The notes beneath the pieces were generated by a model. That model searched no databases. It had not been told where the DNA came from and saw only the letters and a list, made by a program, of their open reading frames with translations. Below are positions 1 through 12,549 of a stretch of 12,549 nucleotides of DNA, in pieces. Source of the DNA: a virus (Duplodnaviria > Heunggongvirae > Uroviricota > Caudoviricetes); IMG/VR virus record IMGVR_UViG_2585427728_000006, positions 1-12,549 of that record. One strand, written 5' to 3'. A program made the position numbers and the translations under genes. Every line of letters starts with the position of its first letter. The stretch's first letter is position 1.

Positions 1-1362
1 ATGTTTAAACCGGAACTCCTTTCCCCGGCGGGAACGCTGAAAAATATGCGTTACGCTTTCGCTTATGGCGCAGATGCTGTTTATGCGGGCCAGCCGCGTT
101 ACTCCCTGCGTGTGCGCAACAACGAATTCAACCACGAAAATCTTCAGCTCGGCATCAATGAAGCCCACGCGCTGGGGAAAAAGTTTTATGTCGTGGTCAA
201 CATTGCACCGCACAACGCCAAGCTGAAAACCTTTATCCGTGACCTGAAACCGGTGGTGGAAATGGGGCCGGATGCGCTGATTATGTCCGATCCAGGGCTG
301 ATTATGCTGGTGCGTGAGCACTTCCCTGAAATGCCGATCCACCTCTCGGTGCAGGCTAACGCCGTAAACTGGGCGACGGTGAAATTCTGGCAGCAAATGG
401 GCCTGACCCGCGTGATCCTCTCTCGCGAGCTGTCGCTGGAAGAGATTGAAGAGATCCGCAATCAGGTGCCGGATATGGAGATCGAGATCTTCGTTCACGG
501 CGCACTGTGCATGGCCTACTCCGGTCGCTGCCTGCTCTCTGGCTATATCAACAAGCGCGATCCGAACCAGGGTACCTGCACCAACGCCTGCCGCTGGGAG
601 TACAACGTCCAGGAAGGGAAAGAAGATGACGTTGGCAACATCGTACACAAGTACGAGCCGATTCCGGTGCAAAATGTTGAGCCGACGCTGGGTATCGGCG
701 CGCCAACCGACAAAGTGTTTATGATCGAAGAAGCCCAGCGTCCGGGCGAGTATATGACCGCGTTTGAAGATGAGCACGGCACTTACATCATGAACTCGAA
801 AGATCTGCGCGCCATCGCCCATGTAGAACGCCTGACCAAAATGGGCGTGCATTCGCTGAAAATCGAAGGCCGTACTAAATCTTTCTACTATTGCGCACGC
901 ACCGCACAGGTTTACCGTAAAGCTATCGATGACGCCGCTGCGGGCAAACCGTTCGATACCAGCCTGCTGGAAACTCTGGAAGGTCTGGCGCATCGTGGCT
1001 ATACCGAAGGTTTCCTGCGTCGTCATACTCACGACGATTATCAGAACTACGAATACGGTTATTCAGTTTCTGACCGCCAGCAGTTTGTTGGTGAGTTTAC
1101 CGGTGAGCGCAAGGGGGACCTCGCGGCGGTAGCGGTGAAAAATAAATTCTCCGTTGGCGACAGCCTTGAGCTGATGACGCCGCAAGGCAACATTAACTTT
1201 ACCCTTGAGCACATGGAAAACGCCAAAGGTGAAGCGATGCCGGTCGCACCAGGCGATGGTTATACTGTGTGGCTCCCGGTCCCGCAGGATCTTGAGCTCA
1301 ATTACGCTCTGCTGATGCGTAATTTCTCCGGGGAAACCACGCGTAACCCACACGGTAAGTGA
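1..1362 (+). CDS. yegQ: U32-family peptidase-like protein YegQ (tRNA hydroxylation protein TrhP)
   Basis: Full-length 453-aa ORF starting MFKPELLSPAGT, matching recalled E. coli YegQ; stop TGA at 1360-1362; followed by cyaR as in E. coli. Confidence 0.9.
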   Translation: MFKPELLSPAGTLKNMRYAFAYGADAVYAGQPRYSLRVRNNEFNHENLQLGINEAHALGKKFYVVVNIAPHNAKLKTFIRDLKPVVEMGPDALIMSDPGLIMLVREHFPEMPIHLSVQANAVNWATVKFWQQMGLTRVILSRELSLEEIEEIRNQVPDMEIEIFVHGALCMAYSGRCLLSGYINKRDPNQGTCTNACRWEYNVQEGKEDDVGNIVHKYEPIPVQNVEPTLGIGAPTDKVFMIEEAQRPGEYMTAFEDEHGTYIMNSKDLRAIAHVERLTKMGVHSLKIEGRTKSFYYCARTAQVYRKAIDDAAAGKPFDTSLLETLEGLAHRGYTEGFLRRHTHDDYQNYEYGYSVSDRQQFVGEFTGERKGDLAAVAVKNKFSVGDSLELMTPQGNINFTLEHMENAKGEAMPVAPGDGYTVWLPVPQDLELNYALLMRNFSGETTRNPHGK

Positions 1363-1392
1363 TTAATTTCGATTATTTTTCCCGGATGGAAA

Positions 1393-1446
1393 ATTCTTAG
1401 AAACCGATCACATACAGCTGCATTTATTAAGGTTATCATCCGTTTC
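1393..1446 (+). promoter_or_regulatory. cyaR promoter region with putative CRP site (TTAGA-N6-TCACA, 1396-1411) and -10-like TATCAT (1434-1439)
   Basis: Half-site TCACA is perfect, left half-site is degenerate; spacing to the inferred cyaR 5' end fits a CRP-activated promoter. cyaR is known to be CRP-dependent. Exact positions not verified. Confidence 0.45.
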
Positions 1447-1533
1447 GCTGAAAAACATAACCCATAAAATGCTAGCTGTACCAGGAACCACCTCCTTAGC
1501 CTGTGTAATCTCCCTTACACGGGCTTATTTTTT
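1447..1533 (+). ncRNA. cyaR: Hfq-dependent small RNA CyaR (RyeE)
   Basis: Sequence GCTGAAAAACATAACCCATAAAATGCTAGCTGTACCAGGAACCACCTCCTTAGCCTGTGTAATCTCCCTTACACGGGCTTATTTTTT matches recalled cyaR; lies between yegQ and ogr as in E. coli K-12; ends in a U-tract. Confidence 0.85.
1507..1533. repeat. P2-type att core, left copy (prophage/chromosome junction next to ogr)
   Basis: 27-bp AATCTCCCTTACACGGGCTTATTTTTT, identical to 12046-12072; its reverse complement AAAAAATAAGCCCGTGTAAGGGAGATT matches the recalled P2 att core; overlaps the cyaR 3' end. Confidence 0.85.
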
Positions 1534-1595
1534 ACGTACAACAAATTGAAATAAAAGGATTTATTTCTGGTCACGTCCACACATTGACCACATCG

Positions 1596-1630
1596 ACAAA
1601 AAAGCCCCTCGACTGAGGGGCTTTCTGTTT
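1596..1630 (-). terminator. Rho-independent terminator downstream of ogr (hairpin usable on both strands)
   Basis: Stem GCCCCTC (1604-1610) / GAGGGGC (1615-1621) with 4-nt loop, flanked by an A-run upstream and T-rich run downstream, so a T-tract follows the hairpin on either strand. Confidence 0.55.
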
Positions 1631-1634
1631 GTAA

Positions 1635-1853
1635 TTACATCCACATAATTTGCTGCCCTGACGGCAAGGGGTGCGGCCTCACGGCGTGGACTTCTCCCGG
1701 CTTCACGATGTATCGCTGTACCGACTCATAAGTGATGAACGTGGCGCTGCAATTCACGTTCTGACACTGGTGATAACGCTCTTTTGTCGTGTCAGTGATA
1801 TAGCGACTTGTACGCGCATGTGCGGCATGCTGGCATAAAGGACAATGAAACAT
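1635..1853 (-). CDS. ogr: P2-type late gene transcriptional activator Ogr (zinc-finger)
   Basis: 72-aa product from ATG at 1853: MFHCPLCQHAAHARTSRYITDTTKERYHQCQNVNCSATFITYESVQRYIV..., matching recalled P2 Ogr/OgrK with the C-x2-C...C-x4-C zinc motif. The 93-aa ORF-track version is an upstream extension. Confidence 0.9.
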   Translation of the reverse strand: MFHCPLCQHAAHARTSRYITDTTKERYHQCQNVNCSATFITYESVQRYIVKPGEVHAVRPHPLPSGQQIMWM

Positions 1854-1934
1854 CGCGAGCACCTCTTCCGGTTTTGTTGATGGTGCCATTTTAGTTAATT
1901 TACCCTTATAAAACAAACAGATAAAAACAAAATA

Positions 1935-2189
1935 TTACTCATCACCTTCTGTTTCGTACTCCACATCAGAAAGCCTGACCTCAAGCTCTAAGGACGTCGT
2001 GAAGCCGCTGTTATTCAGAAAATGTGTCACTTTAGTGATTGTCCAGTCCTGCTCGTCTATGACGCGCTTAAAGCCTGACACTTTAACCGGTGTTTCCGTG
2101 TAAATATCTGCCCGACCAGTAGCCAGGCTGATGGAGAACTCCGCTACACCCCGTTGCAGCTTATCCCACTTCGCCTGAGCGGCACGCAT
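1935..2189 (-). pseudogene. C-terminal fragment of P2 gpD-like tail protein (yegZ-like remnant)
   Basis: 84-aa ORF ending ...TTSLELEVRLSDVEYETEGDE resembles the C-terminus of P2 gpD (about 387 aa in P2). Same frame stays open upstream to about 2312 with no plausible start, so the N-terminal roughly 70 percent of D is missing. Confidence 0.75.
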
Positions 2190-3135
2190 GGCCTGTGCTT
2201 TCGTGGCATATACCGTGGTCAGGGCAAAAACGTTATCAGCCTCACCGGCCAGATGGTATGAGCCACCGGTCAGCTTTACCGGTCTGGCAAAAAGCCTGCG
2301 TGCTGCCGTGCATCACAGCTCACCGATTTACGTCAAACGTAATATTCTGGCCTCGACATTTATCCCGCATCCGTGGCTTTCCCAGCAGGATTTCAGCCGC
2401 TTTGCGCTGGATTTTCTGGTGTTCGGTAATGCGTTTCTGGAAAAGCGTTACAGCACCACCGGTAAGGTCATCAGACTGGAACCCTCACCGGCAAAATATC
2501 CCCGCCGTGGCGTGGAGGAGAATGTTTACTGGTGGGTGCCGTCCTTCAACGAGCCGACACCTTTCGCGCCCGGCTCCGTGTTTCATCTGCTGGAGCCGGA
2601 TATTAATCAGGAGCTGTACGGCATGCCGGAATATCTCAGCGCCCTTAACTCTGCCTGGCTGAATGAGTCAGCCACGCTGTTCCGCCGCAAGTATTACGAA
2701 AACGGCGCACATGCCGGATACATCATGTACGTCACTGATGCCGTGCAGGATCGCAACGATATCGAAATGCTTCGCGAAAACATGGTCAAGTCGAAAGGCC
2801 GCAACAACTTTAAAAATCTGTTTCTCTATGCCCCGCAGGGAAAAGCCGACGGCATTAAAATTATCCCGCTCAGTGAAGTGGCAACGAAGGACGATTTTTT
2901 TAATATCAAAAAAGCCAGCGCCGCTGACCTGCTGGACGCGCACCGCATCCCCTTTCAGTTGATGGGCGGCAAGCCGGAGAACGTCGGGTCGCTGGGTGAT
3001 ATTGAGAAAGTGGCAAAGGTCTTTGTCCGCAATGAGCTTATCCCGTTACAGGACAGGATCCGCGAGATAAACGGCTGGCTCGGTCAGGAGGTCATCCGCT
3101 TTAAAAACTACTCACTGGACACTGACAACGGCTGA
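2188..3135 (+). pseudogene. N-terminally truncated P2-like portal protein gpQ
   Basis: ORF product resembles P2-family portal protein and ends next to cos, as Q does in P2. Frame opens only at 2179 and the first ~40 codons overlap the D fragment on the opposite strand, so the genuine Q part probably begins near 2314 and lacks its N-terminus (P2 Q is about 344 aa). No P gene or late promoter upstream. Confidence 0.75.
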
Positions 3136-3140
3136 ACATC

Positions 3141-3162
3141 GCCGCCTGCGGGCGGCTTTTTT
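3141..3162 (+). terminator. Rho-independent terminator after Q remnant
   Basis: GC hairpin GCCGCC-TGCG-GGCGGC (3141-3156) followed by TTTTTT (3157-3162), 5 nt after the Q stop codon. Confidence 0.6.
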
Positions 3163-3304
3163 ACACCCAGTCATCACGCCCTCACACGCTCACCACCGCA
3201 CAAAACAGCCCGCAGACACAGCAACGCCCCGGCGCAAAATCTAAACGCCGCCACGACGCGCTCAGACGCTGAAAAAATAAAATCAGCACCCCCGCCAGCG
3301 CGCA

Positions 3305-3323
3305 GTGCTTTCCCCGCCTCGCC
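3305..3323 (-). other. P2-type cos site (19-nt cohesive-end sequence)
   Basis: GTGCTTTCCCCGCCTCGCC is the reverse complement of GGCGAGGCGGGGAAAGCAC, the recalled P2 cohesive end; adjacent sequence toward Q also resembles the P2 left end. Confidence 0.75.
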
Positions 3324-3653
3324 CGCCCGCTTCATGGGGCGGTTTTGATGCAATACATGAGCATCGTAATGCCATATCGTGACAGGATTATAGAACATGA
3401 AGGTATACTAACTTACACATGCAAAAAAACGCACACTCAGGCATTCTCTTTGGAATACAATATGGTAAAAATATGATCATTTGAAGCTGCATATCCGTGC
3501 AGATTGAAATCAATGATGCTGCCCCTTCGTTAAGACAGCCAGGCCGCAATCTCTTGAGCTCAAGTGGACATCTAAGACAGAAAAACAATTTAAAGGCAAA
3601 GTTTTCGTAATGGTATCTTTGTCACAGCACACGCTAAAAAGGAACTAAACCTC

Positions 3654-4718
3654 ATGAGCACTCAGCAAGTCCTCAACATCCCTACAGCCGTATCGCAAGC
3701 GACCATCGAAAAATGGTTGAAAGGACTGGAACAGACAACGGAATTAGCCTTTTTTCGCCGTGTTGGCGGGCGGCATGGCTTCAATGTTACGAGCCGCTGG
3801 GCAAGTACATTGGATAACTTGAATAAAACTCTGAATGACCCATCGAAGCAAGGTACGCCTGCAAACTTTTCAAATCTCCGTTTGATTACGTTAAAAATAA
3901 TCACTAGCGTAAACCATTATTATTCAATTGATGGTATTAAATCAGGAACCATTAATTTAATACCAAATATAATCAACTACCCTCACCTCGATAAAACATT
4001 TAGCTCAGTATTTCCAATAAAACTTGATGATAATACAGGACTTCCTTCGACTCCTGGGCATTTCATTACTTCCATCGAAAAAATGGGGGATGGTATTGCT
4101 GTAATATATTCCTATATTATTTTAAGAAAAATCCAAGGAAGGAGTAAGCTACGTAGCAATCAATATCCAGAGCAGTACTTCAACACTGTTTTCATCCCTA
4201 ATGATTTAAGCCGTATAGAATATCGGGTTGATAAATCACTAGGTAAAAGAGCGTCTGAAAAAGCGATGGCAGATTTGCGCGCAAAATTTAATGAATTACT
4301 CGTGGAACTTAATATTAAGTTAGCTGTTGAAACTATAAATTTCTACAAAGCAATTTCCAATATTTACCTTGACAAACAATATGGAAGACTTGTTCAGGTT
4401 AATTTCCTTGATCCAAATGGAGATGAGGATGCTGTTCTTCGTTGCAGAACAGACCCCAATTATGATGCCCGTTATCGCGAGGTTGTATCTAAAACTCAGA
4501 ACGGAACACCTCGCTCATTGACCCTTGAAGTTTCTGGCGTTGCAGTGCGATTAGATAGTAAAGTTGCAAACGAAACAATTTCAAATGAAATTGGTTTTGA
4601 ACCCAGCAAAACTGATTGGTCTACAAACAAATTTTGTGGGGATTTTTATTTTACACAAACAGCAGATCATCAGGTGCATTATGGGGTGATAAATGATTTA
4701 CTCACAAGAGCGAAATAA
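3654..4718 (+). CDS. Hypothetical protein, cargo gene 1 of cos-proximal three-gene operon (354 aa, no recognisable family)
   Basis: ATG at 3654 with AAGGA about 10 nt upstream; long ORF in a strongly AT-rich block; first gene of a co-directional tightly packed trio. No Walker A, RT, TIR or Old-like motifs seen. Confidence 0.75.
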   Translation: MSTQQVLNIPTAVSQATIEKWLKGLEQTTELAFFRRVGGRHGFNVTSRWASTLDNLNKTLNDPSKQGTPANFSNLRLITLKIITSVNHYYSIDGIKSGTINLIPNIINYPHLDKTFSSVFPIKLDDNTGLPSTPGHFITSIEKMGDGIAVIYSYIILRKIQGRSKLRSNQYPEQYFNTVFIPNDLSRIEYRVDKSLGKRASEKAMADLRAKFNELLVELNIKLAVETINFYKAISNIYLDKQYGRLVQVNFLDPNGDEDAVLRCRTDPNYDARYREVVSKTQNGTPRSLTLEVSGVAVRLDSKVANETISNEIGFEPSKTDWSTNKFCGDFYFTQTADHQVHYGVINDLLTRAK

Positions 4719-5127
4719 AAAAATGCGCTCATTAGTGTATAAACAAAGAGTACTCCTGGAGAATGCCGGAAGCTCTTCTGTTTTCATAAATAATGATTCT
4801 CACATATATTATACAAATTTACTAGAATATGTAGAGGGTGATCTTGATCGTAATATTTATACAATCCCAGTATTACGAAAAGCCATAAAAACTGACAATT
4901 ATGAACATTTGCTACGAGTTGTTCAATTTTTTAGTAGCAATACCTCTTGTTTATTTAACGTTAAATATTGCTACGAACTAGAAAACATGGAGTTTGAGGA
5001 CATACAAGCTGATGAATATACCAACTATATATTAAACGGAGTTGAACCTGTAACTGCCAATGGTTCTGAAATTGAAGACTTCAATCCAAAATATCTTTCA
5101 TTTTATTGCATAATAAACCTGGATTGA
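4693..5127 (+). CDS. Hypothetical small acidic protein, cargo gene 2 (144 aa; alternative start at 4723 gives 134 aa)
   Basis: ATG at 4693 preceded by GGGGTG; overlaps gene 1 by 26 nt; stop TGA 5125-5127 lies 5 nt before the gene 3 ATG. Asp/Glu-rich, no recognisable motif. Confidence 0.6.
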   Translation: MIYSQERNKKMRSLVYKQRVLLENAGSSSVFINNDSHIYYTNLLEYVEGDLDRNIYTIPVLRKAIKTDNYEHLLRVVQFFSSNTSCLFNVKYCYELENMEFEDIQADEYTNYILNGVEPVTANGSEIEDFNPKYLSFYCIINLD

Positions 5128-5132
5128 CTGTC

Positions 5133-5981
5133 ATGAACAAACAACAAATCACATGTGAGTTAGGCAAAAGGGTTCATTTTGAAGATGAAGCGAGTTTTAT
5201 TGAAACATTATACTCGGATATAGAAGTCATAATAAAACTAATGGAGCAATCTAGTGACAAGTATTATTGTGATGATGAAGATAAACTAAGCCATACAATT
5301 GTAGCCTCTCTTGTACACCTAGGTTACGATGCAACCGAACAAACAAAAAAAAATGGAAGTGTGGACATAACCGTTCGTCCGAAAAATGGAGGATATACAT
5401 GGATTGCTGAAGCAAAAATCGGATACGGGAACCAAAAAATATTCGAGGGGCTACTTCAGTTGCTTACTCGCTATGTTAAAAGAGATAATCATGCAGGCAT
5501 GGTTATCTATTATCAAAAATCAAAGTCATCTTATCATTTCAAACAATGGCTGAAATACATATACAACCATGAGTGGAAGGATTATTGTACAAAGAAAGGG
5601 TCATTAAAAAAAGCGACTCCGCTACTTTCTCATTTAAAAAGTACGGTTTGTCCGAAAGTCAAACAAGGCTGTTGTTATGCTGACATTGATGTCATCCAAC
5701 CTTCGACTGATGGTCTAAAACTTCGCTGCTTCTATATTGACGTGCATCATGACCCAATTGACAGTAGTGGTTTAAAGAATAAGTCAATCGCCTTTGGTCA
5801 AGCCCAAAATAGAATTAGAGATTTATATCACTTATGGAAGACAGGACAGTTCGACGGCAGTATGATAGATGAATTATTTGAAGAAATAAAAATATATCAT
5901 AGCAATGAACTTGACGAAGAATATGAAGATGAAGATGAAGATGAAGATGAAGATGAAGATTCGAATATAAACTCAAAATGA
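5133..5981 (+). CDS. Hypothetical protein with PD-(D/E)xK nuclease-like signature and poly-(Glu-Asp) C-terminal tail, cargo gene 3
   Basis: ATG at 5133 (the ORF-track start at 5106 is TTG). Contains GSVDITV...(14 aa)...WIAEAKIG, i.e. D78 and E93-x-K95, a spacing typical of PD-(D/E)xK cores; C-terminus EYEDEDEDEDEDEDSNINSK. Confidence 0.7.
   Translation: MNKQQITCELGKRVHFEDEASFIETLYSDIEVIIKLMEQSSDKYYCDDEDKLSHTIVASLVHLGYDATEQTKKNGSVDITVRPKNGGYTWIAEAKIGYGNQKIFEGLLQLLTRYVKRDNHAGMVIYYQKSKSSYHFKQWLKYIYNHEWKDYCTKKGSLKKATPLLSHLKSTVCPKVKQGCCYADIDVIQPSTDGLKLRCFYIDVHHDPIDSSGLKNKSIAFGQAQNRIRDLYHLWKTGQFDGSMIDELFEEIKIYHSNELDEEYEDEDEDEDEDEDSNINSK
5925..5960 (+). repeat. Perfect hexanucleotide tandem repeat (GAAGAT)x6 inside gene 3
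   Basis: Six exact tandem copies of GAAGAT, in frame, encoding (Glu-Asp)6. Confidence 0.95.
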
Positions 5982-5994
5982 ACACCAAGAATCA

Positions 5995-6028
5995 CCCCAT
6001 TAAGTTTAGACATCCTAACTTGATGGGG
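5995..6028. terminator. Putative hairpin between convergent cargo gene 3 and A
   Basis: CCCCATTAAG (5995-6004) pairs with CTTGATGGGG (6019-6028) with one G-U position and a 14-nt loop; no strong T-tract on either strand, so function is uncertain. Confidence 0.3.
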
Positions 6029-6116
6029 AATTGACTTTTAAGTCTGTAACCCTAGCCATCAAAAATAGATTCATTTTAAATAAAAATATATCCGTTACGC
6101 CCCAAAAAAAATTGAA

Positions 6117-8387
6117 TTAATTAGGAAAAACACTCCCAGTTGGAATTTTTTTAAATTTATATTTCCTCCCATCGAAACATACTGTCGCACCGCGTGCTAA
6201 TACCTGTGGTTCCCATTGATTCGGCGTAATACCCTCCTGAGCCAACTCGAATCTTATACGTGGCGTCTGTTCCCGTTCAGCTTTTGTCATTCGTCCTGAG
6301 GGCGCTATCTGATAAGGTTTTAATGGCTCACAGCTCTTTTGCTGGCGATTTGGTCGTGGCGCATCGTGTTTTAGTGCGCATCTGAGCCCCGTCACGACTT
6401 CAGGGTCATCCCAGCCGATAACCCCGCGCTCAATCAGATTCAACACCGCTGCTGCTTGCTCAGAAGGTATGGATGTCATAGCAGGATCGCCACCGCTAGT
6501 TAGCTTTCCACAGTTATTGACAGGACTCCGAGGCGCGGCGATGCCGCTTTTTAAAGTCAAAGGCTCAACGACCGGCACTTTCGGAACAATGCGCCAGTCC
6601 GTCGTTCTGGTGATATGAATATGACGCGCGCCGAGATGCGGCGCGTAAATGCCGACCACTCTCTCGACTTCTTCCTCGTACTCGTTAACTTCATCCGACG
6701 GACTACGGGCAACCCTGACAGTCTGACAATCGCGCGGAACATTTGCCCCACCCTGCGCGCTGATATACAACGCAAAATCACCACTGTCTGCGGCAGCGCG
6801 TGCAGCCTCGACGCGTTCGTCAAACTCATCAGCAATGCTGACGCCGCGAGGCAATTTGCGTAGTTCACGGTAAGCCCCCATTGTCGGCAGGCCAACCGTT
6901 TTAAATTGCGGAATGCGCCACGTTGACGCCCATGCGGTAACAGCCGCGGCAGTGTCTTTCAGCGGCCTGCCGGTATCGTTATCGAGCTGACCATCCAGTG
7001 CATAGCCATCGATGTTTTTTGAGATGTATTTCGCGATATATCCCGCAGCACCGCCCCGGTTAAGGTGTTTTGCCTGAAAACGGTTTCGCGCGGCTCCTCT
7101 TTCGTCACCATCCTCTTTGAGCGCATAGCGACGCATGATTTCGATAATCTGGTTACGCTGGCGTGGATTACAAAAAAGCATCATATGCCAGTGCGGCGTT
7201 CCGTCGTGGTGTGGCTCGACGACTCGCAAACCGTAGACCTGTAAATCATTATCCTTGAATGCCGTGCGCATCAGGCTCCAGATGCGGCAGAGATAACGCT
7301 GCGCATCCTTTGGATTAAATGCCTCATCATTCCAGCCGTGATTTAGCTGGACGGTTTTACTTTCGCCTTTTCCGACCTGACGTGTCGGGTGATACTTTGA
7401 CGGCGCGGTCAGCGTGATAAACATCCCCACATCACCCTCTGCGGCGGCGTAACGCTCAATACCGGCGATGGTGTTCATCAGCTCCATCCGGCGAATTTCT
7501 GGATTAGAAATACTGCCCATCACCTTACTGATAAGGTCGATGCGCTCGCCGGTTTCCCTGTTTTCAAGGTCACACGATTTAAGAAATTCCAGATTTGCCT
7601 GGCGGCGCGCACACACATCACGAATGGCATGTTTACTGGCATAAGGAGAACGGTCTTTATTCACCTCCCCGACAGCAATCAGTAACGCCTCATGCCAGCG
7701 CATACGCTGGCCTTTAAGCTGACTAATCCACCACTCATCGTTAAACAGACGGGCAATGGCAGAATATGCCTGCCTCGTGGTCATCTGTCCTTTACGGTAT
7801 TTTTTCCAGTAGAGAGGGGAAATATTGAAAGCACGTGCAGCGCCAGCAACATGACCATACAGATGCGCCTGCGCCTCATCTGTAAACAGCGATTCTTTCT
7901 CGCCATGTGCATCAACCCATGCATCGCAGAGTTCCTCATACATCATGAAAAGCTGCGATGAGATACGGGCGGCAAACTTTTTCAGCTCCTTGTCATTCAT
8001 CCCCGGCAGACGCGCATAATGGTCACGCTCTGCCAGAAACAGCAACGACGCGTCGGTGTTCATTTCATGGCGCTGATTCACGCGCTCAATACGCGGCCAT
8101 AAACGGCGCTGAAAAGTGGATGTGAGGAAATAAAATCCGTGCACCGGGCTTTTATTGCGCCGGATGTAGTCATAGCGTGAAGTAAACAGCGAGCGCAAAA
8201 AGTAAGGCAGGCGATTAATCGTGGATAAAACACCTTGCACCTGACGCATCTCGTCACGTGTAAGGGGTCTTTCGCGCCCGACGGCCTCGCGTGGCGCGTT
8301 CCATGCATAAGCACCGGTAAACGTCTCACCGGTGCCTGCGGCAAATGCTGACGGAGGGACAAAACGCCCGGAGGCTTTAACGGCCAT
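6117..8387 (-). CDS. A: P2-type replication initiation protein gpA (rolling-circle HUH endonuclease)
   Basis: 756 aa from ATG at 8387 (MAVKASGRFVPP...), closely matching recalled P2 gpA, including the HWHMMLF (HUH) and YIAKYISK motifs. The ORF-track start at 8429 is TTG. Confidence 0.9.
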   Translation of the reverse strand: MAVKASGRFVPPSAFAAGTGETFTGAYAWNAPREAVGRERPLTRDEMRQVQGVLSTINRLPYFLRSLFTSRYDYIRRNKSPVHGFYFLTSTFQRRLWPRIERVNQRHEMNTDASLLFLAERDHYARLPGMNDKELKKFAARISSQLFMMYEELCDAWVDAHGEKESLFTDEAQAHLYGHVAGAARAFNISPLYWKKYRKGQMTTRQAYSAIARLFNDEWWISQLKGQRMRWHEALLIAVGEVNKDRSPYASKHAIRDVCARRQANLEFLKSCDLENRETGERIDLISKVMGSISNPEIRRMELMNTIAGIERYAAAEGDVGMFITLTAPSKYHPTRQVGKGESKTVQLNHGWNDEAFNPKDAQRYLCRIWSLMRTAFKDNDLQVYGLRVVEPHHDGTPHWHMMLFCNPRQRNQIIEIMRRYALKEDGDERGAARNRFQAKHLNRGGAAGYIAKYISKNIDGYALDGQLDNDTGRPLKDTAAAVTAWASTWRIPQFKTVGLPTMGAYRELRKLPRGVSIADEFDERVEAARAAADSGDFALYISAQGGANVPRDCQTVRVARSPSDEVNEYEEEVERVVGIYAPHLGARHIHITRTTDWRIVPKVPVVEPLTLKSGIAAPRSPVNNCGKLTSGGDPAMTSIPSEQAAAVLNLIERGVIGWDDPEVVTGLRCALKHDAPRPNRQQKSCEPLKPYQIAPSGRMTKAEREQTPRIRFELAQEGITPNQWEPQVLARGATVCFDGRKYKFKKIPTGSVFPN

Positions 8388-8652
8388 ATGAGCCAAAAGC
8401 CTCTGAACAACGCTTGCTGAGTTGCTCAACCTGCGCGTTTAAATCAGCAAAAGACTTTGCGCTTCCGGTCAGAATATCGTGATGCATCAGGCCGGAAACA
8501 AGCTGGCTTAATTTCGGATAATAACCAACCACCGCCAGCCATTCCTGACCGGCGTTTTTACCGCTTTCCGCTCTCTTTTTCTCGTGGAGAATAAACTGAA
8601 AGCTGTCACTGGTAACGACATAACGTTCGCCAATTTCAATACGAATACTCAT
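8377..8652 (-). CDS. P2 early-operon hypothetical protein (position of P2 orf83)
   Basis: 91-aa ORF; its ATG (8650-8652) overlaps the stop of the upstream gene, and its own stop overlaps the start of A; position between B and A as in P2. Confidence 0.7.
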   Translation of the reverse strand: MSIRIEIGERYVVTSDSFQFILHEKKRAESGKNAGQEWLAVVGYYPKLSQLVSGLMHHDILTGSAKSFADLNAQVEQLSKRCSEAFGSYGR

Positions 8653-8873
8653 GCCGTTCTCCGGTAATGTTTGTTTTTTGCTTCAAAGACTGACTGGCAG
8701 GAAACACAACGCGTGGCTGACGGATAAGCCGCACGACGGGCAGCAGGTATTGGCGCGTCACACTCTTCGCAAACCAGCGCAGAAGCACCGCAATGTTTTA
8801 CCCTTGCCGCGTTAATCTGACGCTCCAGTAATTCAGCCTGTTGTTCCTGAATAAAATCTACGTTGTCCGGCAT
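8649..8873 (-). CDS. TraR/DksA-family C4 zinc-finger protein (position of P2 orf82)
   Basis: 74-aa ORF with C-x2-C-x17-C-x2-C (CEECDAPIPAARRAAYPSATRCVSCQ); start overlaps the upstream stop (TAATG). Confidence 0.75.
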   Translation of the reverse strand: MPDNVDFIQEQQAELLERQINAARVKHCGASALVCEECDAPIPAARRAAYPSATRCVSCQSVFEAKNKHYRRTA

Positions 8874-9175
8874 TACCAGCTCCTTTTGTCGTTAAGTTTT
8901 TTAAATTCATCAGCGCAATAGCTGGCAATTTCTGTCGTTAATTTCGTCAGTTCATCCACGGAGGAGATTTGCTTGTGAAATACAGCGCGTTTAACAAGTA
9001 AATTGACCACATCAGACAGGAGATTTAATTCGTTCTGATAAATCGCGATAACAGACTCAGTTATTTCGCGTTTTTCTTTATCAAGACCAAGTTGAATAAG
9101 AGATAAATCGCCATTTTTCATAACGGTGATTTTTAAGGCGTTATTCAGTAATACAACTGAACGAGAACAGGACAT
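8873..9175 (-). CDS. P2 early-operon hypothetical protein (position of P2 orf81)
   Basis: 100 aa from ATG at 9175, which overlaps the stop of the upstream gene (TGATG); the 9178 start in the ORF track is TTG. Confidence 0.65.
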   Translation of the reverse strand: MSCSRSVVLLNNALKITVMKNGDLSLIQLGLDKEKREITESVIAIYQNELNLLSDVVNLLVKRAVFHKQISSVDELTKLTTEIASYCADEFKKLNDKRSW

Positions 9176-9399
9176 CAAAGCACCTCCCCGCGAGACAATC
9201 CGATATTGTGAAATTTTTCCGACTCCTGACTGAGCAGCTCGACTATCTCCACGCGGGATAACTCCGCCTTTGTGATGTGGCGAATCATGGCGTCAAGATG
9301 AGAAGAAAAGCGCGTCGCTGCGTCGGCCTGTGCTTCGGTTCTGGCCTGTTGCAGCAGTAATGCGTATTTACCGCACTGATTTTCAGAAACTGTATGCAT
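9175..9399 (-). CDS. P2 early-operon hypothetical protein (position of P2 orf80)
   Basis: 74 aa from ATG at 9399 (MHTVSEN...) with GGAGAAAG upstream; the longer ORF-track version starts at a TTG. Confidence 0.65.
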
Positions 9400-9462
9400 G
9401 ACTTTCTCCAGGCAAAAAGAAGCCCCGCACAATTAAGTGCGTTAAAAACTCTGGTTAATTAC

Positions 9463-9963
9463 TTAATGCAGATATTGCTCTGGTTTTACCGACGTCAGAA
9501 TTGTCGGTGCATACTCAAACAGGCTGAATAATTCACGTAATGCACGGAATAAAGCATCACGCCAGTAACATGATTCTTCATTAATTCGCCAGTATGGCTG
9601 GTTGAATTCTTTTTCAGTCAATCCGGCATGCATAAATAAAGTACGACGCTGACTGACTGTTAAAAAACTAATATATGCATACTCACTTGCGCCAACCTGA
9701 CGGCGTTTGGAGAATGCCCCACGCAATTCATCAATTGCACAAACCAGCCGTTCACGTTCGACGTCGTTCATTTCTTCAAAACGCATCGTTGCGTGACGCT
9801 GTTTTAACTGCGCATGGAAGCAAACCGTTAGCCGTTCGCGTTCCATCATCTGATTATAATAATCGCATGTCTCCTGCCAGCGAGGGACGGCCAGATGCTT
9901 ACCAATTATCCGGCGCATAGCTGCTGGCTGTTTTTCAACGAGATTGAGCGTCATCACTGTCAT
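9463..9963 (-). CDS. B: P2-type replication protein gpB (helicase-loader-like)
   Basis: 166 aa, MTVMTLNLVEKQPAAMRRIIGKHLAVPRWQ..., matching recalled P2 gpB over its whole length. Confidence 0.9.
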   Translation of the reverse strand: MTVMTLNLVEKQPAAMRRIIGKHLAVPRWQETCDYYNQMMERERLTVCFHAQLKQRHATMRFEEMNDVERERLVCAIDELRGAFSKRRQVGASEYAYISFLTVSQRRTLFMHAGLTEKEFNQPYWRINEESCYWRDALFRALRELFSLFEYAPTILTSVKPEQYLH

Positions 9964-10130
9964 TTCCAGACCCTCCGGCTTTTCAGAAAGGTCAGAGTCT
10001 TTTTTAACGGACTCTGTTTTTTGGTGCGGATAATGATTCCCTTACGCCCCTTACCGTGGGTGATGGTGAAGTCAATCGCCCTGGGGCTTTCGTTACGCAA
10101 TAACTGAGCAATACAACGAGGCTCATTCAT
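9960..10130 (-). CDS. Small hypothetical protein (position of P2 orf78)
   Basis: 56 aa from ATG at 10130 with a perfect AAGGAG upstream; the ORF-track start at 10154 is GTG. Confidence 0.6.
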   Translation of the reverse strand: MNEPRCIAQLLRNESPRAIDFTITHGKGRKGIIIRTKKQSPLKKTLTFLKSRRVWK

Positions 10131-10140
10131 ACGGTTCTCC

Positions 10141-10416
10141 TTAACGTGGTTCACCGAGACCTAACCACATCAACCAGCCGTCACGAATCTCTTTAGGACG
10201 GCTTTCATAAGCCAGTTTTAGTCCGTTATTCCATGCCGGAAGGTATACCCAATATTCACCAGCACGCCCCGATACTGACTGAGGGTCAGTAATCTCAATA
10301 ACTGGTAATTTCCCTTTCTCAATCATGCCCCTTACAGCTCTTGGAGTTTTACCAATGAGTTTTGCAAACTCCTGATAAGGCACGGCATCAGTCACGCTTA
10401 CAAGCTGTCTATTCAT
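10141..10416 (-). CDS. cox: P2-type Cox protein (excisionase / repressor of Pc)
   Basis: 91 aa, ...PYQEFAKLIGK...GRAGEYWVYLPAWNNGLKLAYESRPKEIRDGWLMWLGLGEPR, matching recalled P2 Cox; first gene of the leftward early operon. Confidence 0.9.
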   Translation of the reverse strand: MNRQLVSVTDAVPYQEFAKLIGKTPRAVRGMIEKGKLPVIEITDPQSVSGRAGEYWVYLPAWNNGLKLAYESRPKEIRDGWLMWLGLGEPR

Positions 10417-10537
10417 CTGCTACGATTCTCCCTTAGTGCTTCTAATGGCTCCTAATGGCTAATTATTGCCTAAAAGGATAACTCCAGAAGCACAACATTT
10501 CACACTATCAGCAAGAAATTACGCAATCGGAGTAATT
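10417..10537. promoter_or_regulatory. Divergent cox / C control region (Pe/Pc promoters and operator) with tandem 10-bp direct repeats
   Basis: Intergenic region between divergent cox and C; TCTAATGGCT / CCTAATGGCT tandem repeats at 10441-10460 are candidate C-repressor half-sites. Exact promoter elements not assigned. Confidence 0.6.
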
Positions 10538-10837
10538 ATGTCAATAGACGTTTCGGAGAAGTTGAAGCTAATCCGTGAATCTGAAAGGTTAAACCGTAAA
10601 GAATTCAGTGAATTAACTGGTGTAGCCTACAGCTCACTTTCGAGCTATGAGAGCCGGTCAAAAAACGCTGGAGTTGAAGCCATAATGAAGGTCTTACAAC
10701 ATCCCAGATTTACTAAATATACTTTGTGGTTCATGACTGATCAGGTAGCTCCAGAAGCCGGGCAAATTGCGCCCGCTCTCGCACACTTTGGGCAAAACGA
10801 AACAACGTCGCCCCACTCCGGTCAAAAGACTGGTTAA
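10538..10837 (+). CDS. C: P2-type immunity repressor C
   Basis: 99 aa from ATG at 10538; C-terminal half ...FTKYTLWFMTDQVAPEAGQIAPALAHFGQNETTSPHSGQKTG matches recalled P2 C; N-terminal DNA-binding part looks divergent from P2. Confidence 0.85.
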   Translation: MSIDVSEKLKLIRESERLNRKEFSELTGVAYSSLSSYESRSKNAGVEAIMKVLQHPRFTKYTLWFMTDQVAPEAGQIAPALAHFGQNETTSPHSGQKTG

Positions 10838-10952
10838 CAATTTATCGTGAATATATTCATCACAAGTGCCTACTATTGGTGGCTAAATTTCAGCCACCAC
10901 GAAAAAAGCGATTAGTAGTAGCAAAAAAAAGTACCACTCGGAGGGTTTTCTG

Positions 10953-11966
10953 ATGGCAATCAAAAAACTCGATGATGGTCGATATGAAGTGGACATCCGC
11001 CCTACTGGACGTAACGGAAAACGCATCCGTAGGAAGTTTGATAAGAAAAGCGAAGCTGTCGCTTTCGAAAAATACACGTTGTACAACCACCACAATAAAG
11101 AATGGCTATCAAAACCAACAGACAAACGACGTCTGTCGGAACTGACACAGATCTGGTGGGATTTAAAGGGTAAACACGAAGAGCATGGGAAATCTAATCT
11201 TGGAAAAATTGAAATCTTCACAAAAATAACGAATGACCCATGCGCATTTCAAATCACGAAATCCCTTATCAGCCAGTACTGCGCCACCCGAAGAAGTCAG
11301 GGTATTAAACCTTCGAGTATCAATCGTGATTTAACATGTATTAGCGGCATGTTTACAGCCCTGATTGAAGCGGAGTTATTCTTTGGTGAGCACCCTATCA
11401 GAGGGACAAAGAGGCTTAAGGAGGAAAAACCAGAAACAGGCTATCTCACACAGGAAGAAATTGCCTTACTGCTTGCAGCACTTGACGGCGACAACAAAAA
11501 GATTGCGATTCTTTGCCTGAGTACAGGAGCACGTTGGGGAGAAGCAGCTCGTTTAAAAGCAGAAAATATCATCCATAACCGCGTCACGTTTGTTAAAACG
11601 AAAACAAACAAACCACGCACCGTCCCGATCTCAGAGGCTGTTGCCAAAATGATCGCGGATAACAAACGAGGTTTTTTATTCCCTGATGCTGATTACCCTC
11701 GCTTCAGACGAACAATGAAAGCAATAAAACCGGATTTGCCAACGGGGCAAGCCACACATGCACTAAGGCACAGCTTTGCCACTCATTTCATGATTAATGG
11801 AGGAAGTATTATCACGCTACAACGGATACTAGGTCACACGCGGATTGAGCAAACTATGGTTTACGCTCATTTTGCGCCAGAGTACCTTCAGGACGCCATT
11901 TCTCTTAATCCGCTAAGAGGTGGTACTGAAGCCGAGAGTGTCCACACAGTGTCCACAGTAGAGTAA
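10953..11966 (+). CDS. int: P2-type integrase (tyrosine recombinase)
   Basis: 337 aa, GGAGGG SD upstream; C-terminal catalytic region HALRHSFATHF...LGHTRIEQTMVYAHF with the catalytic Tyr; downstream of C as in P2 and adjacent to the att core. Confidence 0.9.
   Translation: MAIKKLDDGRYEVDIRPTGRNGKRIRRKFDKKSEAVAFEKYTLYNHHNKEWLSKPTDKRRLSELTQIWWDLKGKHEEHGKSNLGKIEIFTKITNDPCAFQITKSLISQYCATRRSQGIKPSSINRDLTCISGMFTALIEAELFFGEHPIRGTKRLKEEKPETGYLTQEEIALLLAALDGDNKKIAILCLSTGARWGEAARLKAENIIHNRVTFVKTKTNKPRTVPISEAVAKMIADNKRGFLFPDADYPRFRRTMKAIKPDLPTGQATHALRHSFATHFMINGGSIITLQRILGHTRIEQTMVYAHFAPEYLQDAISLNPLRGGTEAESVHTVSTVE
11938..11957. repeat. Tandem direct repeats GTGTCCACA x2: putative Int arm-type binding sites
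   Basis: Two exact 9-bp copies 11 bp apart at the 3' end of int, about 90 bp from the att core; a related GTCCACACA occurs in the other arm at 1574-1583. Confidence 0.5.
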
Positions 11967-12045
11967 CGTTTAAGGGCTTTCAGTGGTAATTTATGCCGCT
12001 CAAACCCGCATTGTACCGTTGAAAGCCCCTACTGGTGACACCCTA

Positions 12046-12072
12046 AATCTCCCTTACACGGGCTTATTTTTT
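12046..12072. repeat. P2-type att core, right copy (prophage/chromosome junction next to int)
   Basis: 27-bp exact direct repeat of 1507-1533, followed by one extra T. Confidence 0.85.
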
Positions 12073-12136
12073 TATGCATAAGCCCTATCTCTGGTAACCG
12101 TCTTCCATTGACCACATCGATAGAATCCTCCTTCAT

Positions 12137-12169
12137 AGCACGATGCCTTTCACTTATCGGCATCGTGCT
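12137..12169. repeat. Perfect 11-bp inverted repeat (stem-loop) between att core and yegR
   Basis: AGCACGATGCC (12137-12147) and GGCATCGTGCT (12159-12169) with an 11-nt loop; no adjacent T-tract on either strand. Confidence 0.5.
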
Positions 12170-12231
12170 CCCACAGGTTCCGGCTACGCACAGCCAGAAC
12201 GCGCATATTTGACGCTTACCAAAAAATATTC

Positions 12232-12549
12232 TCACTCTCCACATTTGAATGTCAGACGAGCGACACCATGTAATCCTACACCTTCTGTCTTCAGCTCAAC
12301 TATTTGCATTTTTTTGCCCTGAGTAACACAGAAATGAGTTGCATCATTTTTTACTATATTTTCTGCACCAGATATTCTACCCCTGGCTAAAGAAGCTTCG
12401 GCTTCGGTGTAGTATTGGTTATCGAGTTTACGCTGAATATTACTTTTATATGCAAGACCAAATTTACCGATACTTGTCTCATCATTATGCACAGCACAAC
12501 CAGACATAATAAAAATACTAATTAATGATATAGCAGCTATCTTTTTCAT
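12232..12549 (-). CDS. yegR: Putative lipoprotein YegR
   Basis: Complete 105-aa ORF (start codon is the last 3 nt of the window) with signal peptide and lipobox (IFIMSGC); matches recalled E. coli YegR. Confidence 0.85.
   Translation of the reverse strand: MKKIAAISLISIFIMSGCAVHNDETSIGKFGLAYKSNIQRKLDNQYYTEAEASLARGRISGAENIVKNDATHFCVTQGKKMQIVELKTEGVGLHGVARLTFKCGE

Follow-up and report, generated by a model that had tools for sequence, protein, structure and literature searches.

The window analysed here, a stretch of 12,549 nucleotides of Escherichia coli chromosome (IMG/VR virus record IMGVR_UViG_2585427728_000006, positions 1 to 12,549), carries within the remains of a P2-like prophage a cassette of three co-directional genes, the last of which (gene 3) contains near its 3' end a perfect in-frame (GAAGAT)6 repeat. 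Our results show that this repeat differs by whole units between near-identical E. coli loci. We favour, with about even confidence, a reading in which it is a hypermutable in-frame microsatellite encoding a polyacidic tail on the probable effector nuclease of a hotspot cassette, the tail serving as an electrostatic competitor for DNA. The repeat and its immediate surroundings are:

5925..5960, + strand: perfect in-frame (GAAGAT)6 hexanucleotide array, encoding (Glu-Asp)6, residues 265-276 of gene 3
5919..5924, + strand: degenerate leading unit GAATAT (Glu-Tyr), one base off GAAGAT
5961..5981, + strand: six post-repeat codons, SNINSK (5961-5978), followed by the TGA stop (5979-5981)

The six perfect units that the first-pass annotation had placed at 5925-5960, in frame and encoding a Glu-Asp run, are confirmed: the array shares its frame with the open reading frame (ORF) 5106/5133-5981 and translates, with residues counted from the ATG at 5133, as EDEDEDEDEDED. 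Its description as lying just before the stop needs correction, as the six SNINSK codons intervene before the TGA. Tandem Repeats Finder reports positions 5919-5960 with a period of 6, 7.0 copies, 97% matches and a score of 77, the count exceeding six because the preceding GAATAT is itself a unit with one base changed. The Tyr of this leading unit is part of a conserved ELxEEY motif (ELDEEY or ELEEEY in close relatives), which anchors the 5' edge of the array, the latter beginning directly 3' of it. By simple arithmetic the chance of a perfect 36-base periodic run in 12.5 kb is about 12,500 x 4^-30, and the array is thus not there by chance. It consists of perfect head-to-tail units, the length of which is a multiple of three, and lies within an ORF, as expected of an in-frame variable-number tandem repeat. 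The array is real and not an assembly artefact, since perfect arrays of 4-9 units are found in independent assemblies, including two complete chromosomes, and since none of them (24-54 bases) reaches the length of a typical sequencing read.

The first-pass annotation had also expected tail length to differ between strains and had suggested comparing copy number among homologues and related strains. This comparison clearly bears the expectation out: copy number is not invariant, and near-identical E. coli loci carry 4, 5, 6, 7, 8 or 9 perfect units. A first sample comprised the window and nine further genomes encoding an identical gene 1 protein, with all arrays being perfect GAAGAT:

5 units: three genomes
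6 units: four genomes plus the window, per the tabulated count
7 units: one genome
8 units: one genome
9 units: one genome

The per-locus list for the same set (window plus nine genomes) reads 5, 5, 5, 6, 6, 6, 6, 7, 8, 9. Among complete E. coli genomes the island that holds the cassette is present in 2 of 5,426, at 99.5-99.7% identity, with one match 6 bases shorter and the other 12 bases longer than the query. In a three-way alignment, strain A23 has 5 units, ZH177 has 8 and the window has 6, the rest of that stretch being identical. At the protein level, the 90% cluster contains a 4-unit allele (P0057) on 35 contigs and a 5-unit allele on 31, together with two rare interrupted variants, and RefSeq holds separate protein accessions for different alleles. 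The metagenome scan recovered a single contig (L022), the DNA of which carries 4 units. The exact repeat flank was also searched for in one genome per species, with no match, and an exact-sequence look-up of the 6- and 8-unit proteins was likewise without match, though both alleles exist at the DNA level.

Length changes proceed without frameshift, as had been proposed from the window by itself, and they involve whole units only. Four loci with 5 (L001), 9 (L012), 6 (L018) and 6 (L021) units show 0 differences over 2,822 flanking bases, and the 5-unit and 6-unit alleles are each present on haplotypes that lie 3-6 substitutions apart, which amounts to homoplasy. Turnover of the array is therefore recurrent and outpaces the sum of all point changes in the surrounding 2.8 kb; given the zero flanking substitutions, we expect slippage at a rate of at least about 1e-6 per generation. 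This pattern is the signature of slipped-strand mispairing in a slippage-type microsatellite that always stays in frame. Alleles below 4 units or out of frame were absent from the sampled loci. As controls, two clusters of relatives that have no acidic tail (P0025 and P0026) were inspected across hundreds of contigs; their full-length members are all 265 amino acids long, with near-identical C-termini. A further single ED gain was seen in the Cronobacter cluster (TDDEDEEND vs TDDEDEDEEND).

The protein that bears the tail is described by two features:

5133..5981, + strand: gene 3, with a predicted PD-(D/E)xK restriction-endonuclease fold, a helical C-terminal domain and a disordered acidic tail
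5364..5417, + strand: putative catalytic motif, D78 (5364-5366) ... E93-A-K95 (5409-5417), in invariant columns of a 52-sequence alignment

Read from the ATG at 5133, gene 3 encodes 282 amino acids; an alternative TTG at 5106 would give 291, and RefSeq annotation in two other genomes uses the ATG equivalent to 5133. The AlphaFold2 model, built from the 52-sequence alignment, has a predicted local distance difference test score of 87.6, with the last ~22 residues at 53-57. It displays the alpha/beta core of the restriction-endonuclease-like superfamily together with the conserved D...(D/E)xK residues, and D78, E93, K95, Q109, R113 and Y114 are invariant in the alignment. The earlier designation of gene 3 as a nuclease is thus supported by the PD-(D/E)xK fold and by the invariant D78 and E93-x-K95. 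Although the fold is shared with BamHI, BglII and BstYI-type restriction endonucleases and with McrC, sequence identity to these proteins amounts to only 11-12% and, unlike the BamHI/BglII/BstYI-type enzymes, gene 3 has an extra helical C-terminal domain, has no adjacent methyltransferase and belongs to a three-gene cassette with an RdgC-like protein.

An exhaustive profile search yielded ~19 full-length clusters at 50% identity and ~700 clusters that have only the nuclease module in common with it; clusters of stand-alone proteins number about as many, the best-scoring being of ~200-230 amino acids. The set also includes proteins in which the module forms the C-terminal domain, namely proteins of 900-1,200 amino acids with an N-terminal NACHT nucleoside triphosphatase and central HEAT repeats, STAND/NLR-like in organisation (P0198, P0205, P0210, P0223, P0233, P0253), and this order of NACHT, HEAT and nuclease is an immune-type architecture. 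In addition, PADLOC gives a domain-level match of gene 3 to the candidate PDC-S54 (1.6e-7). Given the predicted nuclease fold and motif, the module shared with NACHT-HEAT proteins and the PDC-S54 match, gene 3 very probably encodes an effector nuclease.

Gene 3 does not stand alone, and the setting of the cassette is given by its two other genes and by the phage genes on either side:

3654..4718, + strand: gene 1, 354 amino acids, basic (isoelectric point, pI, 9.06), RdgC / CENP-L / Iml3-type fold
4693..5127, + strand: gene 2, 144 amino acids, acidic (pI 4.7), of no recognisable family, with a 26-base overlap with gene 1
2188..3135, + strand: P2-type portal (gpQ) gene fragment, left border of the hotspot (Phage_portal 5.8e-14)
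6117..8429, - strand: P2-type replication gene A, right border of the hotspot (Phage_GPA 2.2e-122)

The interval between portal and gene A is an island of 35% guanine-plus-cytosine (GC) content that holds the three co-directional genes (3654-5981), in the order RdgC-like basic protein, small acidic protein and, last, nuclease. With portal gene Q on one side and replication gene A on the other, the cassette lies in a P2-like prophage at the site that Rousset et al., 2022, defined as the P2 defence hotspot (PMC9122126). Exactly this trio appears in Table S5 of that study as system 145 (labelled DUF5939 and DpnII-MboI), with 14 occurrences, and the representative protein given there has six ED units (PMC9122126). 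The cassette is rare (14 of 18,150 P2 loci). The sizes of the trio, 350 / 140 / 270-290 amino acids, are conserved across several genera, and the genes are kept as a unit in other mobile or defence contexts, often at prophage edges or beside integrases: in Cronobacter, in Enterobacter (again in the P2 hotspot), at a lambdoid prophage edge in E. coli, in Citrobacter adjoining an integrase, in Pseudoalteromonas and in Aeromonas. On plasmids we found only distant protein relatives. With regard to gene 1, its model matches RdgC, CENP-L, Iml3, CENP-N and Chl4, that is, the RexA/RdgC group of DNA-binding folds, in which the protein forms a ring or a horseshoe.

On this basis we propose a model in which replication slippage would add or remove whole GAAGAT units, always in frame, and would so lengthen or shorten the disordered polyacidic C-terminal tail of a nuclease of predicted PD-(D/E)xK fold. 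This nuclease would be the probable effector of the three-gene cassette, which P2-like prophages carry as cargo in their portal-gpA defence hotspot. The tail, in turn, would most likely compete electrostatically for DNA, holding down the DNA binding of the nuclease or of its basic RdgC-like partner as long as the system has not been triggered. Acidic tails are known on HMGB1, SSB, T7 gp2.5 and T4 gp32. As in E. coli SSB and the other three proteins, and in Asp/Glu-rich mimics (PMC6294567), gene 3 carries a long disordered Asp/Glu run at the terminus of a protein predicted to act on DNA, and these proteins are precedents for electrostatic self-inhibition and DNA mimicry. Both Asp/Glu-rich segments and acidic surfaces have been described as DNA mimics (PMC6294567, PMC2806950), although T7 Ocr is a folded mimic (PMC2806950), unlike the tail of gene 3. 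By analogy with such proteins, the DNA-mimic or autoinhibitory segment suggested by the first-pass annotation is plausible. The analogy is incomplete in two respects, as the tail of gene 3 is not conserved across its own family and intramolecular binding is putative here.

Comparison across the family helps to place the tail. Among 22 relatives at >=48% identity, the segment after the last helix measures 6-26 residues and is 48% Asp+Glu and ~7% Lys+Arg, as opposed to 12-15% Asp+Glu in the protein body; across these relatives the segment keeps its acidity but varies in sequence. The tail in the window is the longest and most acidic of them, with 16 Asp/Glu in 26 residues and a net charge of -15, the remaining protein having +2. 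In distant relatives nothing follows the last helix (HPEYFV), or it is followed by a short DPDD motif or a basic tail (P0050, P0052-56, P0183). The 85%-identical orthologue of Enterobacter sp. ECC-019 carries at the same tail position an in-frame repeat (GAAGATGTC)2.7 (L023, 4748-4837), encoding EDVEDVED, and the Cronobacter gene has at the matching place only GATGAAGATGAA; therefore, the pure GAAGAT array seems to be a recent expansion in the E. coli lineage. Since close relatives have short acidic tails unrelated in sequence and distant ones have none or basic tails, the long ED run would be a recent expansion of an accessory acidic tail. We infer that the ancestor of the enterobacterial branch may already have had a short acidic tail, since maintained for its negative charge rather than its sequence, and that the (ED)n of E. 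coli probably arose by recent slippage seeded at the conserved ELDEEY motif. The tail would then be an accessory and not a core element, its exact length not being strongly constrained, and individual variants of 4-9 units are probably near-neutral or weakly tuning.

Several points weigh against an electrostatic role for the tail within a defence cassette. The acidic tail is not conserved family-wide, and the core mechanism would work without it, because distant relatives are tailless or basic-tailed. Contacts of the tail with the nuclease and with gene 1 are putative, and no pattern links the charge of gene 1 with that of the gene 3 tail across seven loci: in L010 gene 1 has +7 with a basic gene 3 tail, and in L011 it stands at 0 with an acidic one. 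The observed range of 4-9 units could stem from mutational bias alone. As for the cassette, a role in defence is suggested only by where it lies, how it is built and the domain that it shares with other proteins; PADLOC gave no match for gene 1 or gene 2, and the systems that Rousset et al., 2022, cloned, as given in their Table S2 (PMC9122126), do not include system 145.

The foremost alternative is that the tail is neutral, a low-complexity by-product of slippage in an unconstrained disordered C-terminus, with neither its charge nor its length having any effect. This explanation, which we regard as possible though less credible than electrostatic competition, would account for the distant family members with no tail or a basic one and for the coexistence of many lengths on identical backgrounds. 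It also agrees with the use of an identical codon pair in all units, as expected from recent slippage and not from selection on amino acids, and with GAA and GAT being the commonest Glu and Asp codons of the island. However, Lys, Asn, Ile and Phe, rather than Asp and Glu, are the residues that unconstrained drift would be expected to favour in an island of 35% GC, and the tails of the 22 diverged relatives remain as acidic as described above despite their differing sequences. The lack of alleles below 4 units or out of frame in our samples also speaks against neutrality.

At the other extreme, tail length itself might be selected as a contingency-type rheostat, in which each unit shifts the activation threshold or the target range of the nuclease and populations hedge sensitivity against autoimmunity. 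The turnover of the array, faster than point mutation and with homoplasy, its bounded range of 4-9 and the fact that in-frame changes leave every variant functional are in line with this notion. There is also a precedent in restriction systems, as an in-frame change in the 12-bp repeat of HsdS alters function between EcoR124I and EcoR124II. Like gene 3, HsdS is a restriction or defence-type gene whose units are a multiple of three and whose copy number changes between close strains without frameshift; unlike the EcoR124 spacer, which sets the geometry of target recognition, the repeat of gene 3 lies in a disordered nuclease tail. Nevertheless, bounded ranges also result from length-dependent slippage rates, the sample is small and ignores kinship, and the cassette is rare both among complete E. 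coli genomes and among P2 loci, so that we consider a rheostat unlikely. Slightly more doubtful still is its strongest form, namely that the array is a genuine contingency element in E. coli, with the length of an autoinhibitory DNA-mimic tail setting the firing threshold of a prophage nuclease that works with a DNA sensor of RdgC/RexA fold.

Alternatively, the tail might mainly serve as a docking site for the basic RdgC-like gene 1 protein in complex assembly, or as a lure for a phage DNA-binding protein that acts as trigger, with no inhibition of the nuclease involved. Gene 1 is indeed basic and has a DNA-binding ring or horseshoe fold, and the acidic tip of SSB is a classic protein-docking tail. 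The charges of gene 1 and of the gene 3 tail, however, do not co-vary in the seven loci compared above, which makes docking improbable. An effect at the level of translation is less probable again: at least 12 consecutive acidic residues might cause intrinsic ribosome destabilisation (IRD) and lower or condition the yield of full-length nuclease, Asp/Glu runs being what defines an IRD sequence in E. coli (10.1101/2021.02.02.429294). The risk is maximal at N-termini, and internal runs are cryptic, counteracted by the nascent chain that fills the exit tunnel (10.1101/2021.02.02.429294); since acidic runs are reported to be cryptic behind a long nascent chain, and 264 residues precede the run in gene 3 (which starts at residue 265), this reading has very little in its favour. 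That the copy-number differences are assembly or sequencing artefacts has a negligible chance of being true, for short-read data can mis-assemble repeats but these arrays lie below typical read length, two complete chromosomes differ (5 vs 8), 35 contigs share the 4-unit allele and 31 the 5-unit allele, and the alleles have RefSeq accessions of their own.

Coding tandem repeats of variable number and acidic tails are both known kinds of element, and here they are combined in a candidate defence cassette. To our knowledge, few hypervariable simple-sequence loci are known in E. coli, and we know of no description of length-variable in-frame repeats in anti-phage effectors. If tail length tunes the nuclease, slippage would provide a simple, heritable and reversible adjustment of immune sensitivity, and the alleles of 4-9 units a natural series for dissecting how acidic tails restrain DNA enzymes; were the contingency reading true, populations of lysogens would continuously explore the trade-off between phage sensitivity and self-damage. 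Should the tail be neutral, the locus would still be convenient for typing this prophage lineage at high resolution. Apart from the repeat, the combination of an RdgC-fold protein, a small acidic protein and a PD-(D/E)xK nuclease is a catalogued, uncharacterised P2-hotspot cargo, and it is a reasonable defence candidate because its nuclease module is common to NACHT-HEAT STAND proteins.

Searches with the cassette proteins were otherwise sparse in matches. Against Pfam, NCBIfam and PHROGs, genes 1-3 gave only phrog families of unknown function and a sub-threshold match to DUF7164, and comparison of gene 2 and of the gene 1 and gene 3 family profiles with PDB sequences was uninformative. A phage genome collection contained no DNA match to the island, and no paper on the cassette was found by RefSeq accession, PDC-S54 or DUF5939. 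We considered gene 1 as a homologue of lambda RexA and rejected it: the resemblance holds at the level of the fold group, which includes RexA and bacterial RdgC (PMC11077077), with no sequence signal (hhalign probability 0.2% for lambda RexA). Moreover, unlike the lambda RexA system, the cassette has no RexB-like membrane partner, the partner of gene 1 being a nuclease. We also rejected an identity with the validated 'hp+hp+hp' system of E. coli E1114, which likewise comprises three genes without clear Pfam domains at the portal Q-gpA locus; its proteins, compared by reading, are unrelated in sequence and size, and the start strings of the proteins in the window are not in Table S2 of PMC9122126. 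In the Enterobacter locus L023, the cassette adjoins an insertion sequence element and a protein kinase gene and does not lie within a P2 prophage.

With respect to the surroundings of the cassette, the window begins with a U32-peptidase-like gene annotated as yegQ in matching genomes and ends, by identity with annotated genomes, with yegR; between the two lies a gutted P2-like prophage. Its structural genes are all gone, and the hotspot cargo and the early region (gene A, cox, repressor and integrase) remain. Further features of the prophage and its flanks are:

1635-1916, - strand: ogr
1935-2189, - strand: short ORF at the place where matching genomes annotate the late-control gpD gene
5995..6028, + strand: stable hairpin 3' of gene 3 (-20.5 kcal/mol, z -3.7)
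10953-11966: integrase

The ogr gene and the short ORF directly abut the portal fragment (window 1363-3135 region), the N-terminal ~60 residues of which are not portal-like. The prophage of strain ZH177 shows a different pattern of decay, with the cargo retained. The hairpin lies 14 bases past the stop of gene 3, has no clean T-run and was missed by the terminator scan; it is possibly the terminator of the operon. The longest ORF of gpA begins with a TTG and encodes 770 amino acids, and gene callers assign 756 to the orthologue; translation probably starts downstream of that TTG. In the short spacer between the divergent cox and repressor genes (10438-10460), the 10-base direct repeat GCTCCTAATG is present in 2.3 copies and may represent operator repeats of the repressor. 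Finally, an 11-base direct repeat, AGTGTCCACAC, in 1.9 copies at the 3' end of the integrase gene (11937-11957), near the junction between prophage and chromosome, may be related to the attachment site.
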